The notes under the pieces were generated by a model that saw only the letters and a list, made by a program, of their open reading frames with translations, had not been told where the DNA came from and did no database searches. Both the position numbers and the translations under genes were made by a program. A stretch of DNA of 64,000 nt, taken from positions 15,194 through 79,193 of the forward strand of contig JAGOWQ010000005.1 in the NCBI GenBank assembly GCA_018060185.1, written 5' to 3'. The stretch comes from Leptotrichiaceae bacterium (GTDB lineage: Bacteria > Fusobacteriota > Fusobacteriia > Fusobacteriales > Leptotrichiaceae). The stretch's first letter is position 1; each line of letters begins with the position of its first letter. Of this stretch, positions 52,604 through 57,835 are shown piece by piece.

Positions 52604-53116
52604 TTATTTTACTTCTTCTAACCATTTTTCTAATATCTCTTTAGAATTTTTAACTTCTGAACCTACTATTGATAATCCTTTTCTAACTTCTGAACTATCA
52701 CATATTTTTTTTATGTCGTTTACACTTCTACCTAATCCACTTCCTTCGTGTGTACAAATTGGTTTTATCACTTTTCCTGAAAAATCGTATTCTTCTAAAA
52801 ATGTAAATAAAACCATAGGCATTGTACCACAATAATTTGGATAAGCCAAATATATAGTATCATATTTTTCAGGCTCTTGAAGATATTCATCTAATTCAGG
52901 TCTTATATTATTTTGAAAATCATATTTTACTTCTTCTACACATTTATCATATTCATCAGAATATTCTACAACTTGTTTAATATGAAAAACATCTGCTCCT
53001 GTTATCTCTTTGAGTGTCTCTACTAACGTTTCTGTGTTTCCTTTTTCAACTGTTTTTATTTTACCTCCAAAATAATTTTCTCCTCTTCTAGAGTAATACG
53101 CTATTAATTCTGCCAT
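52604..53116 (-). CDS. flavodoxin family protein
   Basis: 170 aa counted from the ATG at 53116 (MAELIAYYSRRGENYF...), which is preceded by a GGAGGGA SD. The track start 53128 is GTG and lies in the SD. The pattern AYYSRRGEN...IYLAYPNYCGTMP...ICTHEGSGLG fits short flavodoxin-like FMN proteins. Confidence 0.75.
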   Translation of the reverse strand: MAELIAYYSRRGENYFGGKIKTVEKGNTETLVETLKEITGADVFHIKQVVEYSDEYDKCVEEVKYDFQNNIRPELDEYLQEPEKYDTIYLAYPNYCGTMPMVLFTFLEEYDFSGKVIKPICTHEGSGLGRSVNDIKKICDSSEVRKGLSIVGSEVKNSKEILEKWLEEVK

Positions 53117-53314
53117 AATTCCCTCCACTATATTAATTTTAATTTTATAATAAATTATAACATATTTTTTTAATTTATATATTTTTTTATATTAATATTT
53201 ATTATTTTAATTACAATATAGAACTATTAGAAAGCTTTATTTATAGATATTGTATACTAAAAAAAAAATTCTAAAAAAAATTGTGATTTTAATAAAAATA
53301 GTTTATAATTAAAA
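53069..53314. repeat. left copy of a ~245-bp direct repeat (flavodoxin codons 1-16 plus the whole divergent promoter region)
   Basis: Aligns by eye with 56345-56588 at a constant offset of 3276 nt. There are about 7 substitutions and one 2-nt indel. The 48 coding nt are identical. Confidence 0.85.
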
Positions 53315-54089
53315 AATTAAATTCACGATAATGAAAAATGTATTAATTATATATGTACAACTGTTTAGTTTGACTATCAATACTAGCTGTTCGTTAGGAA
53401 TAAGACACTTTTCTCGTTTTATAAACTACAATGATATTAAAGAATAAAATTATAACATTTTCATTTCAATATATGTTGAACTATAAGATACAAGATAAAA
53501 TTAAATAGAGGTGTTATAATATTCGTATTTCAAATATGTAAAATTTAAAAATACCAATTCATACACTATCAGTTCAACGTGAACAGATAATTTTACAGAT
53601 CCTACAAAAAAACTTATAATAAGAAAAATATAAATATTATAAAGATAGTTTATTAATTTTATGTGATTAAAAATCGTCTAAATAAAGAAAAAGTATGTTT
53701 CCTAAAAGTAACTCCAATAGTTAATTTTACTAATTAATATAATAAAAATAATCTAAAAAGCAATAATTTAAAAGGATATGTTTTAATAACTGGTACAGAA
53801 ATTTCAAAATATTAAGTAAAAAAATGAGATATATTTTTTACAATAACATTTGAAACTAAAAAGAGTTAATGTAATTATTTAAGATGTAAAAAATTAAGTT
53901 TTTATTATATTTGCGTTTAGGTCAATATCGAAAATAAATAAAAGAAAATTGAGCTAATACTCTAAGAATTAATATGATATTCTATTTTGGTGAAAATGAA
54001 GAAAAATAGTGTGTCTTTTGAATGAGGAAAACTCTGAAGATATTTCTAGTAAAGAGGATAAAAAATATAAAAATCAAAAATAATATTAT

Positions 54090-54134
54090 ATAAAAAACTG
54101 ACCATTAAGAAATATATAAAATCATATGATCAGT
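54090..54134. terminator. bidirectional terminator hairpin at the 3' end of the DUF262/DUF1524 gene
   Basis: ACTGACCAT (54097-54105) pairs with ATGATCAGT (54126-54134): 9 bp with one wobble or mismatch. An A-run lies on the left and ATTTTTAT on the right, so a U-tract follows the hairpin on either strand. Confidence 0.6.
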
Positions 54135-54141
54135 ATTTTTA

Positions 54142-56316
54142 TCAGTTCATCTCTAAAATAATAAAATCAGAATCTAAATCGTATTCTTTCATTATACTAG
54201 AAATTCTTTTAATTAGTGTCTCAGAACTTTCATTAGTATAATAAACATAATCATTAAAATTTGAATCTAATTCCGAAGCATATCTACCATTATGATCCTT
54301 AAAACATTTTAAATAATTTTCATGATTTTTTTTTGAATTACTCATCAAATCAGAATATTTTAAAATTAAAGGGGATTTTTTCCCAAAAATACGTTTTTGG
54401 TTATCAAATATATGCGTGATAGAATAATTATCTGAATTTTTAATCCAACTAATAAATTTTAAAAATACATCTTGCCATGTTCCTACAATGTATTCTTCTG
54501 AATCTATTAGCATCTTTTTTGGTTTATTTCCTGTTACAATATCCTTAAAATTTCCTTCTAAAGGAGAGAAAATATTGATTTGATTTGTATTTTGATTCCA
54601 ATTATTAATACTTTTTCTTTTCTCTGGTAATGGAAAAGTATCTAGGAAGCGTTCAATCATTTTTTTTTGATGTGCTAAAATAGAATCTTCATTCCAAATT
54701 TTTGTATTAATAACATCTAATCTATAATGTAATGAAGATGTAGCATATTTATCCTTTTTTTCTTTAAATGGTTTATTTCCTATTTCATTATTAAACTCAG
54801 TTAATATAATATTTCCAATATTATGTAAATATTTTTTATGAATACTGCTATAATTTTGACCTAGATCATTTTTCCATTGTTGAGTCAATTTTTGAGGCAT
54901 TATATGTTCAATTGTTATTTTTTTATCTCTAAAATCTACAGATACCTTTGCAACACTGGTTTCAATTTTTCCCAATATAAATTTAGAGTAACTCTTAAGT
55001 TCTTCGTAAAAATTCAAGTCCTTAAAATGATTATATAATTCAGTATCATTAGGCATCCTTAAATTATAATGTTGAGTACTTAGTAGTTCTAACATTGTTG
55101 TTCTATTATCCGCAATTTCATTAATTCTTTTAGACAGAGACGGAATATTTTTATTTTCTCCTTGTGATAATTTCAGTACTCTTCTCCTAATTAAATAAGT
55201 TCGAATAGTTTCCAATGTTTCAACTAATTGATTATCATTTATTATTTTTAAATGTTGGTGGTGCTCAAATAATCCAAGAACAAATGGTTTAAATGGCTCA
55301 GTTTTAATATCAGAAAATATATTTTTTAAAAGTTCACAAATTTTGTCGTTAACTAACGGGTCTGAAGAAATACTATCTGTTATATTATCTGAAATAATCC
55401 ATTTGTACCACGATACAAATCTAACAATATCATTAACAAAATCCATTTTATTTTTAAAGTTTTCTACAAAAGATTTGAAAATTTGATATAGTTCCTTTGT
55501 GTTGCTTTCACTAACTACTTTAAGATCTGTTCCAAGTTTATATTGCAAATAATCTCTAAAAAATTTTGAAGTATAATCTTCAAAATTTTCCTCAATTTTA
55601 GGATACCAAATTTTTTCGTAAACATCAGATTGTTCACTACTTAACATTTCTAGCAGTACATAATTTCTTACTAAATCTGATAAAGAAAGAGGCTTACCAA
55701 GAGAATTTAAAGTTTCAAATATAATTTGTGGATCTTCACCTTTAAAGGGACGTTCATCTAAAAATATTAGAGCAACATTAACTCTTGAAAGAGCAGTTAA
55801 ATAATTTTCAAAAGTAAATGAATGAGATTTAATTTTTTTTAAAAACAATTCATAGGCAGTTCCTATGATACTTGCAGTTAATACACCCTTTACTAATTTT
55901 TTATATGTCTCCCAATCTTTTGTTACTTGTTTTAATTTAATTTTATCTTCAAAAGAAGATGAATTATTCTTCAAATAGTATTCGTTAATATGAGATTTTT
56001 CTTTTTTGTCTTCTGTATAATCTCTTAATGCAATTAAAAAAATTAGAGTCGTGGTTAGACGTTGTTGACCATCAATTACTATGCTCCTAGTAGCAAATTT
56101 TTCTTTTTCCGTTTTAATTACAATCGTTCCAAAAAAATGTTCAAGTTTATCAGTTTGTTTAGAATCTAGTTCACTTTCAATTATTCTAACAATATCATCA
56201 AAATATCTATCAATTTCATTTTTTCCCCAAGCATATGCACGTTGAAATGGTGGAATAAAAAACGATGTATTATTCTGGGTTAATACGTCATTTATACTTT
56301 GATTATCTGTTTTCAT
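54142..56316 (-). CDS. DUF262 (ParB/Srx-like NTPase) plus DUF1524 (His-Me finger nuclease) protein, GmrSD/BrxU/SspE-like type IV restriction-type enzyme with an extra C-terminal domain
   Basis: 724 aa. N-terminus FFIPPFQRAYAWGKNEIDRYFDDI and IDGQQRLTT (DUF262 hallmarks). Around residues 470-520, ITIEHIMPQ...LHNIGNIILTEFNNEIGNKPFKEKK (DUF1524 H..N..N pattern). The last ~165 aa match nothing I recognise. A GGGGGGA SD precedes the ATG at 56314-56316. Confidence 0.8.
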   Translation of the reverse strand: MKTDNQSINDVLTQNNTSFFIPPFQRAYAWGKNEIDRYFDDIVRIIESELDSKQTDKLEHFFGTIVIKTEKEKFATRSIVIDGQQRLTTTLIFLIALRDYTEDKKEKSHINEYYLKNNSSSFEDKIKLKQVTKDWETYKKLVKGVLTASIIGTAYELFLKKIKSHSFTFENYLTALSRVNVALIFLDERPFKGEDPQIIFETLNSLGKPLSLSDLVRNYVLLEMLSSEQSDVYEKIWYPKIEENFEDYTSKFFRDYLQYKLGTDLKVVSESNTKELYQIFKSFVENFKNKMDFVNDIVRFVSWYKWIISDNITDSISSDPLVNDKICELLKNIFSDIKTEPFKPFVLGLFEHHQHLKIINDNQLVETLETIRTYLIRRRVLKLSQGENKNIPSLSKRINEIADNRTTMLELLSTQHYNLRMPNDTELYNHFKDLNFYEELKSYSKFILGKIETSVAKVSVDFRDKKITIEHIMPQKLTQQWKNDLGQNYSSIHKKYLHNIGNIILTEFNNEIGNKPFKEKKDKYATSSLHYRLDVINTKIWNEDSILAHQKKMIERFLDTFPLPEKRKSINNWNQNTNQINIFSPLEGNFKDIVTGNKPKKMLIDSEEYIVGTWQDVFLKFISWIKNSDNYSITHIFDNQKRIFGKKSPLILKYSDLMSNSKKNHENYLKCFKDHNGRYASELDSNFNDYVYYTNESSETLIKRISSIMKEYDLDSDFIILEMN

Positions 56317-56392
56317 TACAATATCCCCCCAATGTATCTTGATTAAAATAATTTTCTCCTCTTCTAGAGTAATACGCTATTAATTCTGCCAT
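56303..56392 (-). pseudogene. duplicated 5' fragment of the flavodoxin gene forming a 29-codon leader ORF
   Basis: ATG at 56390-56392 with the same SD as the flavodoxin gene. It reads MAELIAYYSRRGENYF (identical to flavodoxin residues 1-16), then NQDTLGGYCNENR*. By my reading the stop falls just inside the first codons of the DUF262 gene. Confidence 0.6.
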
Positions 56393-56588
56393 AATTCCCT
56401 CCATTATATTAATTTTAATTTTATAATAAATTATAACATATTTTTTTAATTTATATATTTTTTTATATTAATATTTATTATTTTAATTGAAATATAAAAC
56501 TATTATAAAGCTTTATTTATGGATATTGTATACTAAAAAAAAAATCAAAAAAAATTGTGATTTTAATAAAAATAGTTTATAATTAAAA
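56345..56588. repeat. right copy of the ~245-bp direct repeat
   Basis: See 53069-53314. It ends 5 nt after a TTGTGA-17-TATAAT promoter that faces the oxidoreductase gene. Confidence 0.85.
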
Positions 56589-56647
56589 TAGAATTTTTTT
56601 TATTAATCAAGGAGTTTTAAAATAAAAATAATAAAAGGAGAATAACC

Positions 56648-57664
56648 ATGTTAACTATTGCCTACATTGGAAACGGTAAAAGTACCAATCGTTATCATTT
56701 ACCATTTTCAATAAAAGTAAAAGATATTAAAATCAAGACAATATATTCGCCATCTCCAAACTCTTGGGAACATATTGAAGGAATTATTTATACAAACAAA
56801 ATAGAAGATGTTTTAAATGATGAAGAAATTCAGTTAATTGTACTTGCTATTCCAGCAAGTTATCACTACGAAGTAGCCAAACAATGTTTAGAGTCAGGTA
56901 AACATACTTTAGTTGAAAAACCTTTTACTGAAACATCTACTCAAGCACGTGAACTTTTTGATATCGCTAAGAAAAAAGGTCTTTTTATTCAAGCTTATCA
57001 AAATAGAAGATTTGATTCTGACTTCTTAACTGTTCAAAAAGTTATTAATAGTGGTGTTTTAGGTGATATTTTAGAAGTAGAGATGCACTTCGATTATTTT
57101 CGCCCTGAAATACCAAAATCTGTTAAAAAATATTCTATTAATTCTAGTTATCTTTATGGGCATGCTTGTCATACTGTTGATCAAGTTATCTCATTTTTTG
57201 GTAAACCAGACCATATTCACTACGATGTTCGACAATTACTCGGTAAAAATCGAATGAATGATTATTTTGATCTTGATTTTTACTATGGTATTACAAAAGT
57301 TTCTATAAAATCTAGTTATTTTAGAATAAAAGAGCGTCCTAGCTTTATTATATATGGTAAAAATGGTATGTTTGTCAAAGTAAGTAAAGATCGTCAAGAA
57401 GAAGATTTAAAAAAATTCTATATGCCTAATAATATCGACTTTGGTTTGGATAAACCAGAACACTACGGTACCCTTACTTACATTGATAGTCAAGGAGTTT
57501 ATCATGAAGAATCAGTTATTACTGAAATAGGTGATTACAGCCACATTTATCAAGGTGTTCATGATACTATCATTAACGGGGCTGATAAAATTATAAAAGA
57601 TGAAGAAACAATTCTTCAAATTGAAATACTAGAAGAAGGTATACGACGTATGAATAAGAATTAA
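56648..57664 (+). CDS. Gfo/Idh/MocA family NAD(P)-dependent oxidoreductase
   Basis: 338 aa with an N-terminal Rossmann motif IAYIGNGKSTNRYHLP and an EKP motif (LVEKPFT). An AAAGGAG SD is present. Confidence 0.8.
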   Translation: MLTIAYIGNGKSTNRYHLPFSIKVKDIKIKTIYSPSPNSWEHIEGIIYTNKIEDVLNDEEIQLIVLAIPASYHYEVAKQCLESGKHTLVEKPFTETSTQARELFDIAKKKGLFIQAYQNRRFDSDFLTVQKVINSGVLGDILEVEMHFDYFRPEIPKSVKKYSINSSYLYGHACHTVDQVISFFGKPDHIHYDVRQLLGKNRMNDYFDLDFYYGITKVSIKSSYFRIKERPSFIIYGKNGMFVKVSKDRQEEDLKKFYMPNNIDFGLDKPEHYGTLTYIDSQGVYHEESVITEIGDYSHIYQGVHDTIINGADKIIKDEETILQIEILEEGIRRMNKN

Positions 57665-57748
57665 ATATACCTTTTTAGTAGTAAAATATCTGTTCGACGT
57701 AATAAATTAAACCACGTATCTACATTAAATTTTTCTTATATTAAAAAA

Positions 57749-57789
57749 CCTTTGGGTAACATGCTGATTTAACATATGTTATCCAAAGG
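57749..57789. terminator. bidirectional rho-independent terminator between convergent genes
   Basis: 14-bp perfect stem CCTTTGGGTAACAT / ATGTTATCCAAAGG with a 13-nt loop. AAAAAA lies before it and TTTAT after it. Confidence 0.8.
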
Positions 57790-57835
57790 TTTATATGAAT
57801 TTTTTTCTCTAGTATAAACTACTATAATCAGTATT

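Follow-up and report, generated by a model that had tools for sequence, protein, structure and literature searches.

GmrSD-like nucleases are among the commonest single-gene defences of bacteria. Here we describe one such nuclease gene, located on the minus strand of a 64,000-nucleotide (nt) stretch of DNA from a Leptotrichiaceae bacterium (hereafter the window), together with the subfamily of ~733-amino-acid (aa) proteins to which its product belongs. One of the closest described systems is HEC-06, a validated single-gene defence in which the DGQQR and E-H motifs are required (bioRxiv 10.1101/2024.01.29.577857). Its Bacteroides homologue HEC-06_Bact, obtained by functional selection, protects Escherichia coli against T-even phages but not against the unmodified phage T4-GT7 (bioRxiv 10.1101/2025.02.28.640651). 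DndI (PDB 9JFL) is the phosphorothioate-sensing nickase of the IscS-DndBCDE-DndI system; in DndI and in SspE, a Tyr just before the N-domain QR motif (Y25 and Y30, respectively) senses the modification, and DndI damages cells that lack it (PMC11662687). ORF5 belongs to the dpt cluster of Salmonella Cerro 87 (PMC2978375). Extra domains of GmrSD proteins, where present, lie in the variable C-terminal part, and those named by Machnicka et al. in 2015 are DUF4268, DUF4357 and DNA_binding_1 (PMC4619093).

The gene in the window is genuine, intact and stand-alone. By analogy with its characterised relatives, it probably (we put this at about 0.7) encodes a self-sufficient, single-polypeptide GmrSD-like restriction nuclease that would defend against invading DNA, most likely DNA with modifications foreign to the host, in the manner of type IV enzymes. 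Tail-type C-terminal add-ons in GmrSD proteins are already known (PMC4619093); the tail of this protein is one without detectable sequence or structural relatives.

A single-chain nuclease with a C-terminal extension

The gene (P0001) occupies 54142..56316 on the minus strand and encodes 724 aa plus a stop codon, as established from the list of open reading frames (ORFs), translation, Pfam and PADLOC. These limits agree exactly with the original prediction, which had been made from the letters alone. The ORF begins with ATG, with a G-rich Shine–Dalgarno (SD)-like run 8–10 nt upstream, and joins a DUF262 and a DUF1524 domain in one chain via a long helical linker. The N-terminal GmrSD_N/DUF262 ParB-like NTPase domain (residues 9–220, 55657..56292, minus strand; Pfam PF03235, E 5e-32) contains FFIPPFQRAYAWG at residues 19–31 and DGQQR at residues 82–86 (56059–56073, minus strand). 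The linker (residues 221–421, 55054..55656, minus strand) has no Pfam match; it is covered by the PADLOC Orf5 and HEC-06 profiles and is all-helical in the AlphaFold model, with a predicted local distance difference test score (pLDDT) of mostly 80–93. The GmrSD_C/DUF1524 His-Me finger nuclease domain (residues 422–555, 54652..55053, minus strand; Pfam PF07510, E 3e-25) carries EHIMPQ at residues 470–475, with E470-H471 at 54904–54909 (minus strand), and HNIGNIILTEFNNEIGNKPF at residues 498–517. The subfamily-specific tail (residues 556–724, 54145..54651, minus strand) comprises an extended segment, residues 556–598, followed by an alpha/beta domain, residues 599–724, and NQNTNQINIFSPLEGNF spans residues 574–590. 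All motifs quoted in the original prediction for the DUF262–DUF1524 architecture are present, and the whole protein has no NCBIfam match.

In an alignment of 36 family sequences, D82-G-Q-Q-R86, E470, H471, H498, N499, N502, N509 and N514 are all invariant; the catalytic H and N residues, whose presence had been left to proper alignment, are accordingly in place. F24 is also invariant, and it occupies the position of the phosphorothioate-sensing Tyr of DndI and SspE.

Both GmrSD-like domains were detected and HEC-06 models matched the protein over their full length. The best PADLOC model was Orf5 (PDLC02693; E 3.9e-97, 324 bits), aligning residues 14–558 with positions 4–539 of 543. It outscored HEC-06 PDLC04157 (E 1.8e-61, 206 bits; residues 4–556 on positions 10–550 of 558) and the further HEC-06 models PDLC04155 (E 5.3e-57) and PDLC04154 (E 1.6e-50). 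We infer that the label Orf5 most plausibly comes from dpt ORF5, the gene later named dndI (PMC11662687). Because these PADLOC profiles of 543–562 positions align over their entire length and run out at about residue 558, residues 556–724 are a true extension, outside all Orf5 and HEC-06 models. The closest solved structure was DndI 9JFL (sequence E 2.7e-14 over both domains; fold E 1.2e-4, probability 1.0), whose HNH region aligns with the nuclease domain, and SspE came next. The kinship with GmrSD, BrxU and SspE that had been proposed at the outset therefore stands for the shared architecture, but the nearest relatives are DndI (9JFL), PADLOC Orf5 and HEC-06.

The tail is specific to the subfamily and evolves fastest

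The original prediction had singled out the last residues of the protein as matching no known motif, and this was borne out by Pfam, PHROG and PDB-profile searches. Searched alone, the tail (556–724) gave a best Pfam match of only E 0.03. Scanning 76 tails of the family one by one yielded zero PHROG matches and no Pfam family in common, and a tail profile run against PDB sequences found nothing (best E 0.5). An AlphaFold2 model of the tail had a pLDDT of 83 and a predicted TM-score (pTM) of 0.76, with residues ~556–598 less confident. In this model, residues 599–724 are compact, in the order strand-strand-helix-helix-helix-strand-helix-strand-helix-strand. Foldseek found no significant neighbour of the model in the PDB (best E 0.67) or in BFVD (best E 0.27, probability 0.54, TM 0.39), and there was no similarity at meaningful scores to the SRA, EVE/ASCH, winged-helix or SeqA-C reader folds. 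The possibility, raised with the prediction, that hidden Markov model (HMM) and fold searches would reveal the tail as a standard part of well-characterised GmrSD enzymes is thus answered in the negative.

When 1.84 billion representatives were searched exhaustively with the tail by phmmer, only 36 matches came back, which are C-termini of 726–758-aa proteins or truncated gene calls, and a tail-restricted word search found GmrSD-architecture proteins only. Judged by these searches, the tail is confined to the C-terminus of GmrSD-like proteins of the ~733-aa subfamily. What looked like a stand-alone family of ~215-aa tail proteins was rejected: all its members start with MGNKSF, which corresponds to an internal E(I/M)GNK motif, and are truncated gene calls. 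Two proteins carry the tail in another setting. P0126 (492 aa, from the representative library) combines an N-terminal dynamin-family/MMR_HSR1 GTPase (Pfam E ~1e-8) with the last GmrSD_C helix and a complete tail; it may be an assembly chimera, or else the product of a rare rearrangement in which the tail has been put to use beside a different NTPase. P0122 (150 aa) consists of a lipoprotein-like signal peptide and the last 118 tail residues, 97% identical to the window tail, and is probably a chimeric contig or gene call.

Several candidate relatives of the tail were considered and set aside. A SeqA-C-like methyl-DNA reader was rejected as unsupported after its three sub-threshold hints failed a profile–profile test. 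The hints were a Foldseek match to 1lrr_A (probability 0.10), matches of 2 among the 76 tails to the Pfam family SeqA (E ~0.5), and an hhalign match of 34 columns that falls on what we take, from the SeqA–DNA structure, to be the DNA-contact loop. With the SeqA family profile, which is shallow (at least 86% identity), the best match shifted to an unrelated 18 columns at a probability of 0.7%. KilA-N, at E 0.03 for the window tail, matched 1 of 76 tails and was put down to chance. None of DUF4268, DUF4357 and DNA_binding_1 was among the families listed for the tail, taken up to E 10 for the window tail and up to E 1 for the 76 tails (25 families). Phage-encoded relatives of the tail were found neither in PHROGs nor in BFVD.

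Within the family, identity to the window protein is 69% in the N-domain, 60% in the linker and 66% in the nuclease domain, and it falls to 45% in segment 556–598 and to 28% in residues 599–724. By this comparison the tail is conserved, yet the fastest-evolving part of the protein. The extended segment 556–598 is conserved, with TFPLP, NWN, FSP and G-KP motifs. Tail residues invariant across the 36 sequences are N572, W573, N574, F583, S584, P585, G596, P599, W614, Q615, N639, Q640, K673, G677 and R704. Segment 556–598 reaches a pLDDT of ~77–79 in the full-length model versus 50–67 in the isolated tail model; this better modelling in the full-length context suggests that the segment packs on the enzyme body. 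Most members have acidic tails (median isoelectric point (pI) 5.0, median net charge -6), which makes it less likely that the globular domain simply binds DNA; the acidity counts against just that one option for the role of the tail. In the window protein, the globular part has a pI of 5.9 and segment 556–598 is basic.

A lone gene spread across phyla

In a search of 5.8 billion protein clusters, 1,822 of the candidates scored were significant relatives. More than 1,800 proteins of ~733 aa, from many phyla, thus have the full architecture, at about 57% identity and 99–100% coverage. Nearly all of the top 120 are 725–748 aa long and align at 98–100% query coverage and 55–59% identity, with a Lactovum relative reaching 66%. 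Exceptional in length among these 120 are a protein of 772 aa and P0002, a gene call of 568 aa inside the window ORF. A scan of 185,579 species genomes identified 128 encoding loci; the counts that follow refer to the best 80 of these unless stated otherwise. The 80 loci, at 46–73% identity, come from Bacteroidota, Spirochaetota, Planctomycetota, Patescibacteria, Elusimicrobiota, Campylobacterota, Fibrobacterota, Chloroflexota, Kiritimatiellota, Ignavibacteriota and Bacillota, a distribution that is a clear signature of horizontal spread. The tail is fixed throughout this large cross-phylum family and is not a local oddity; the suggestion that it marks a distinct subfamily was right.

To look for partners, we surveyed 342 flanking ORFs, three on each side of the gene. 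No conserved partner emerged at the 80 loci; the commonest family, tyrosine recombinases, occurred at 7 loci and in variable positions. The 128 immediate neighbours are a housekeeping mixture with scattered type IIG restriction–modification (R-M), ThsB-TIR, DRT and PDC genes. The phosphorothioate modules dndBCDE and sspABCD are absent from the window and from the 128 immediate neighbours, and are not recurrent among the 342 flanking ORFs. Likewise, no BREX component lies in the window and none recurs at the homologous loci. The family is a stand-alone system that at times lands in defence islands or mobile elements.

Nonsense or frameshift lesions were present in 7 of the 80 loci (about 9% pseudogenes). 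Two of the stops arose independently, in unrelated family members, at the same conserved Trp codon, exactly at the nuclease–tail junction: L021:8001-10196 (Patiriisocius marinus, TAG) and L053:8001-10202 (a Wolinella metagenome-assembled genome, TGA), leaving tail-less ORFs of 565 and 568 aa. Such tail-less variants may be tolerated, or the shared position may be due to chance, TGG being a mutable codon.

Carriage in integrons was assessed through attC sites. A strict attC consensus was found at 1 of 72 family loci, and a relaxed scan showed no enrichment at family loci over upstream, reverse-strand or shuffled controls. Five loci (L011, L032, L040, L041 and L056) have convincing attC-like imperfect palindromes of 131–145 nt, lying 4–28 nt after the stop codon and with ends of the form ...TAAC.../...CGTTG.... 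At L011, the second gene upstream encodes a tyrosine recombinase of the integron type. On these sequence features, integron carriage appears real in the family but a minority route. An integron cassette origin was rejected for the window copy, which has no convincing attC candidate downstream of the ORF.

The window copy lies between duplicated repeats

The absence of partner genes, originally noted for several kilobases on either side, holds over the whole 64-kb window: PADLOC and Pfam applied to its 61 ORFs found no Dnd, Ssp, BREX or R-M methyltransferase gene. The ORFs are otherwise housekeeping genes, and the PADLOC cross-hits are ABC-transporter ATPases and DprA.

A repeat search and pairwise alignment identified two direct repeats of ~245 nt, about 96% identical with a 2-nt indel and clean junctions. 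The left copy (53069..53314) is continuous with the intact flavodoxin gene at 52604–53128; the right copy (56345..56588) contains the flavodoxin promoter and SD, the first 20 codons and part of the divergent intergenic region. Between them lie 3,030 nt, a 3.0-kb cassette made up of the nuclease gene plus an AT-rich stretch of 827 nt without ORFs; the insertion, placed between the flavodoxin and oxidoreductase genes, measures 3.3 kb. The nuclease gene is directly behind the duplicated flavodoxin promoter. A leader ORF of 33 codons (56303..56404, minus strand, from translation), encoding MEGIMAELIAYYSRRGENYF and 13 cassette-encoded residues, derives from the duplicated flavodoxin start and overlaps the nuclease ATG by 14 nt; public contigs annotate it as a 29-aa gene from an internal Met. 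The GC skew over 53–58 kb differs from that of the rest of the window. The repeat layout suggests single-crossover (Campbell-type) integration of a circular molecule carrying this homology. In this genome the gene probably came in on the 3.0-kb cassette, whose integration between those two genes duplicated ~245 nt, and it is probably read from the duplicated flavodoxin promoter behind the short leader ORF.

The ORF-free remainder of the cassette (827 nt, about 19% GC, 53315..54141) lies downstream of the nuclease gene. It has no open frame longer than 58 codons, no Rfam match, no attC-like site and no similarity to DNA adjoining other family members; a partner hidden in this spacer was rejected on the lack of an ORF, of an Rfam match and of any likeness to homologue-adjacent DNA. 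The spacer may represent the remains of a partner gene, may act as an antisense regulator, or may simply be junk. A duplicated oxidoreductase-type promoter, TTGTGA-17-TATAAT (53281–53309, plus strand), aims into it, convergent with the nuclease gene.

The host is widespread in wastewater (20 runs from 11 studies, 2018–2025). In Logan assemblies of eight wastewater runs, the island forms its own 3,090-nt unitig at a depth equal to that of the flanks. No contig in these eight assemblies joins the two repeat copies; the only apparent joint was a 22-nt match to other organisms. An empty site, or excision between the repeats, was found neither in the 23 contigs with an identical oxidoreductase gene nor in the contigs of the eight runs. 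Run X12 contains, beside the window version, a slightly diverged second version of 56467–56800 (the right repeat and the oxidoreductase 5' region) with 4–6 differences and one 1-nt gap; the co-occurrence of the two versions points to a second strain. Further along the window, between the convergent oxidoreductase and V-ATPase D genes, 57735–57799 gives a sub-threshold Rfam match to mir-1245 on both strands, and this palindromic hairpin is most likely a bidirectional terminator, not a microRNA.

Intact and frameshifted alleles coexist

The nuclease gene is polymorphic at 55914..55915 (minus strand), where contig alignments show GATTGGG in the intact allele of the window and GATGGG, with a 1-nt deletion, in the other. 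The deletion, at gene position 402, splits the gene into ORFs of 140 and 568 aa and cuts the N-domain at 140 aa. It is recorded at loci L001–L006 and L092. Apart from the one missing base, 22 same-synteny contigs match the window over about 3 kb, and six deletion contigs aligned to the window are otherwise 100% identical to it. The lesion is recent, given that no other difference separates the alleles over 3 kb (100% identity). The exact protein is found on 25 public contigs and the truncated call on 19, from several wastewater studies. Among the Logan contigs of the eight runs, the deletion occurs in X7 and X8, which are possibly one dataset filed twice, and is absent from the six others, which represent six studies. 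Phase variation was rejected for this site: GATTGGG/GATGGG is not a homopolymer or repeat tract, so the change is an ordinary indel. The coexistence of intact and frameshifted alleles in worldwide wastewater populations, together with a captured housekeeping promoter, amounts to a natural experiment.

Proposed function and alternative explanations

Our model of the enzyme draws on the mechanisms of HEC-06, HEC-06_Bact, DndI, SspE, BrxU and Eco94GmrSD. NTP hydrolysis in the N-domain would drive a conformational switch, probably within a dimer, and this switch would license the C-terminal nuclease to nick or cut the target DNA. The tail would tune when, and on what, the nuclease fires, whether by target or trigger selection, by autoinhibition or through oligomerisation, and would not act as a plain DNA clamp. 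We count in favour of a defence role the rapid turnover typical of defence genes, visible in the cross-phylum spread at 50–58% identity, the pseudogene fraction of about 9% and the frameshift allele. Several points weigh against this picture. DndI and SspE, structurally the two nearest of the characterised relatives, are not type IV enzymes: what they sense is phosphorothioate that the host itself has made, so a transfer of function from the nearest neighbour points elsewhere. At a pLDDT of 72 the full-length model is of mediocre quality, and confidence is low near both active sites. About 40% of contigs carry the frameshifted allele, which shows that the window species can do without the gene. 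Finally, the tuning role of the tail is one that we purely infer.

One alternative is that the enzyme reads the host's own mark, such as phosphorothioate, laid down by genes elsewhere in the chromosome, sparing self DNA and nicking unmarked invaders. Among solved structures DndI is the nearest, the top PADLOC models are Orf5, which we take as DndI-like, and SspE models match the N-domain. We nevertheless consider this improbable: there is no dnd or ssp gene in the 64-kb window or among the immediate neighbours at 80 loci from many phyla, and a lone gene spreading across phyla at 50–58% identity cannot depend on a host-specific mark. In addition, the sensing Tyr of DndI (Y25) and SspE (Y30) is replaced by the invariant F24, and the toxicity of DndI in cells without modification suits a lone gene poorly (PMC11662687). 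At a similarly low level we place the idea that the gene is decaying, functionless cargo in the window species, a hitch-hiker on an old insertion. The deletion allele is common (19–22 contigs versus 25 intact, and runs X7 and X8), about 9% of family members elsewhere have nonsense or frameshift mutations, and beyond the gene the cassette consists of 827 nt that are AT-rich and lack ORFs; on the other side, the window copy is intact with all invariant residues, the recent lesion leaves alleles that are 100% identical over 3 kb in every other respect, the intact allele is found in 6 of 8 runs from six studies, and the gene has a promoter and an SD-like run.

Other possibilities keep the core enzyme as we propose it and differ in the tail. 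Many type IV enzymes carry separate reader domains, and the tail could be such a reader of modified DNA, setting substrate specificity; the original prediction had likewise seen in it a possible specificity or sensor domain. No other part of the protein varies as much (28% versus 60–69% identity), as expected of a specificity module, and the conserved W573, F583, W614, K673, N695 and R704 could line a pocket. Against this stand the acidity of the tail in most members (median pI 5.0, net charge -6), the lack of meaningful similarity to known reader folds, and the fact that DndI and SspE sense modification via the N-terminal domain (PMC11662687), and we hold it to be a minority option. With the sensor of DndI and SspE in the N-domain and the tails acidic, a sensing tail is only one of several readings. 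Equally tentative is a broader proposal, that the ~733-aa proteins form a distinct, very mobile single-gene restriction class whose tail is a new fold. The fold would sense the trigger or set the specificity, responding to some DNA feature or phage protein that known GmrSD, BrxU, SspE and DndI enzymes do not recognise, or would be a surface for co-evolution with phage inhibitors. Either role would explain why the tail evolves fastest in a protein that is ~60–70% conserved across phyla.

For the window alone, the finding is modest, since its protein is an ordinary member of the subfamily. The subfamily itself is numerous, with more than 1,800 sequence clusters. Its gene passes alone from one phylum to another, even distant ones, and its members always carry the ~170-residue module, making it a tractable case for learning what an accessory domain adds to the DUF262–DUF1524 engine. 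Epigenetic mapping, too, might gain from it a modification-dependent nuclease of new specificity.

Comparison with known systems

HEC-06 resembles the window protein in organisation. Both are one polypeptide with a DUF262 domain (DGQQR), a helical linker and a DUF1524 domain (E-H), and have no dedicated partner; the essential E-H and Q-R residues of HEC-06 are present and invariant in the ~733-aa family. HEC-06 profiles, however, comprise 558–569 positions and end at residue ~556, whereas the window protein has 169 more residues, and HEC-06 was discovered inside Hma and type I R-M systems, while the ~733-aa family has no recurrent neighbour.

DndI has the same layout of a DGQQR NTPase and an HNH nickase. 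It differs in being 596 aa long without a tail, in being encoded in a dndFGHI operon beside dndBCDE, and in relying on phosphorothioate sensing by Y25, where the window family has an invariant Phe and the window no dnd genes. SspE (PDB 6JIV and 7DRS) shares PP(Y/F)QRAY(S/A)W and DGQQR in a DUF262 N-domain, a C-terminal DUF1524 nickase and a length of ~770 aa. Yet only its N-terminal ~110 residues align significantly (E 9e-6), and the PADLOC SspE match covers residues 4–130 only. SspE has SspABCD as partners, and its extra length is not homologous to the tail, because no PDB chain matches the tail.

GmrSD proper (EcoCTGmrSD and Eco94GmrSD; PMC4437046, PMC4619093) and BrxU (7P9K; PMC8565348) have the same two Pfam domains and embody the same concept of a stand-alone, single-chain, NTP-stimulated type IV enzyme. 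Both are nonetheless distant in sequence: PADLOC mREase_IV matches the N-domain only (E 2e-14), the SspE and mREase_IV models reaching no further than the first ~100–140 residues, and BrxU/HEC-05 is absent from the 25 PADLOC families shown. BrxU is BREX-embedded, unlike the lone gene described here.

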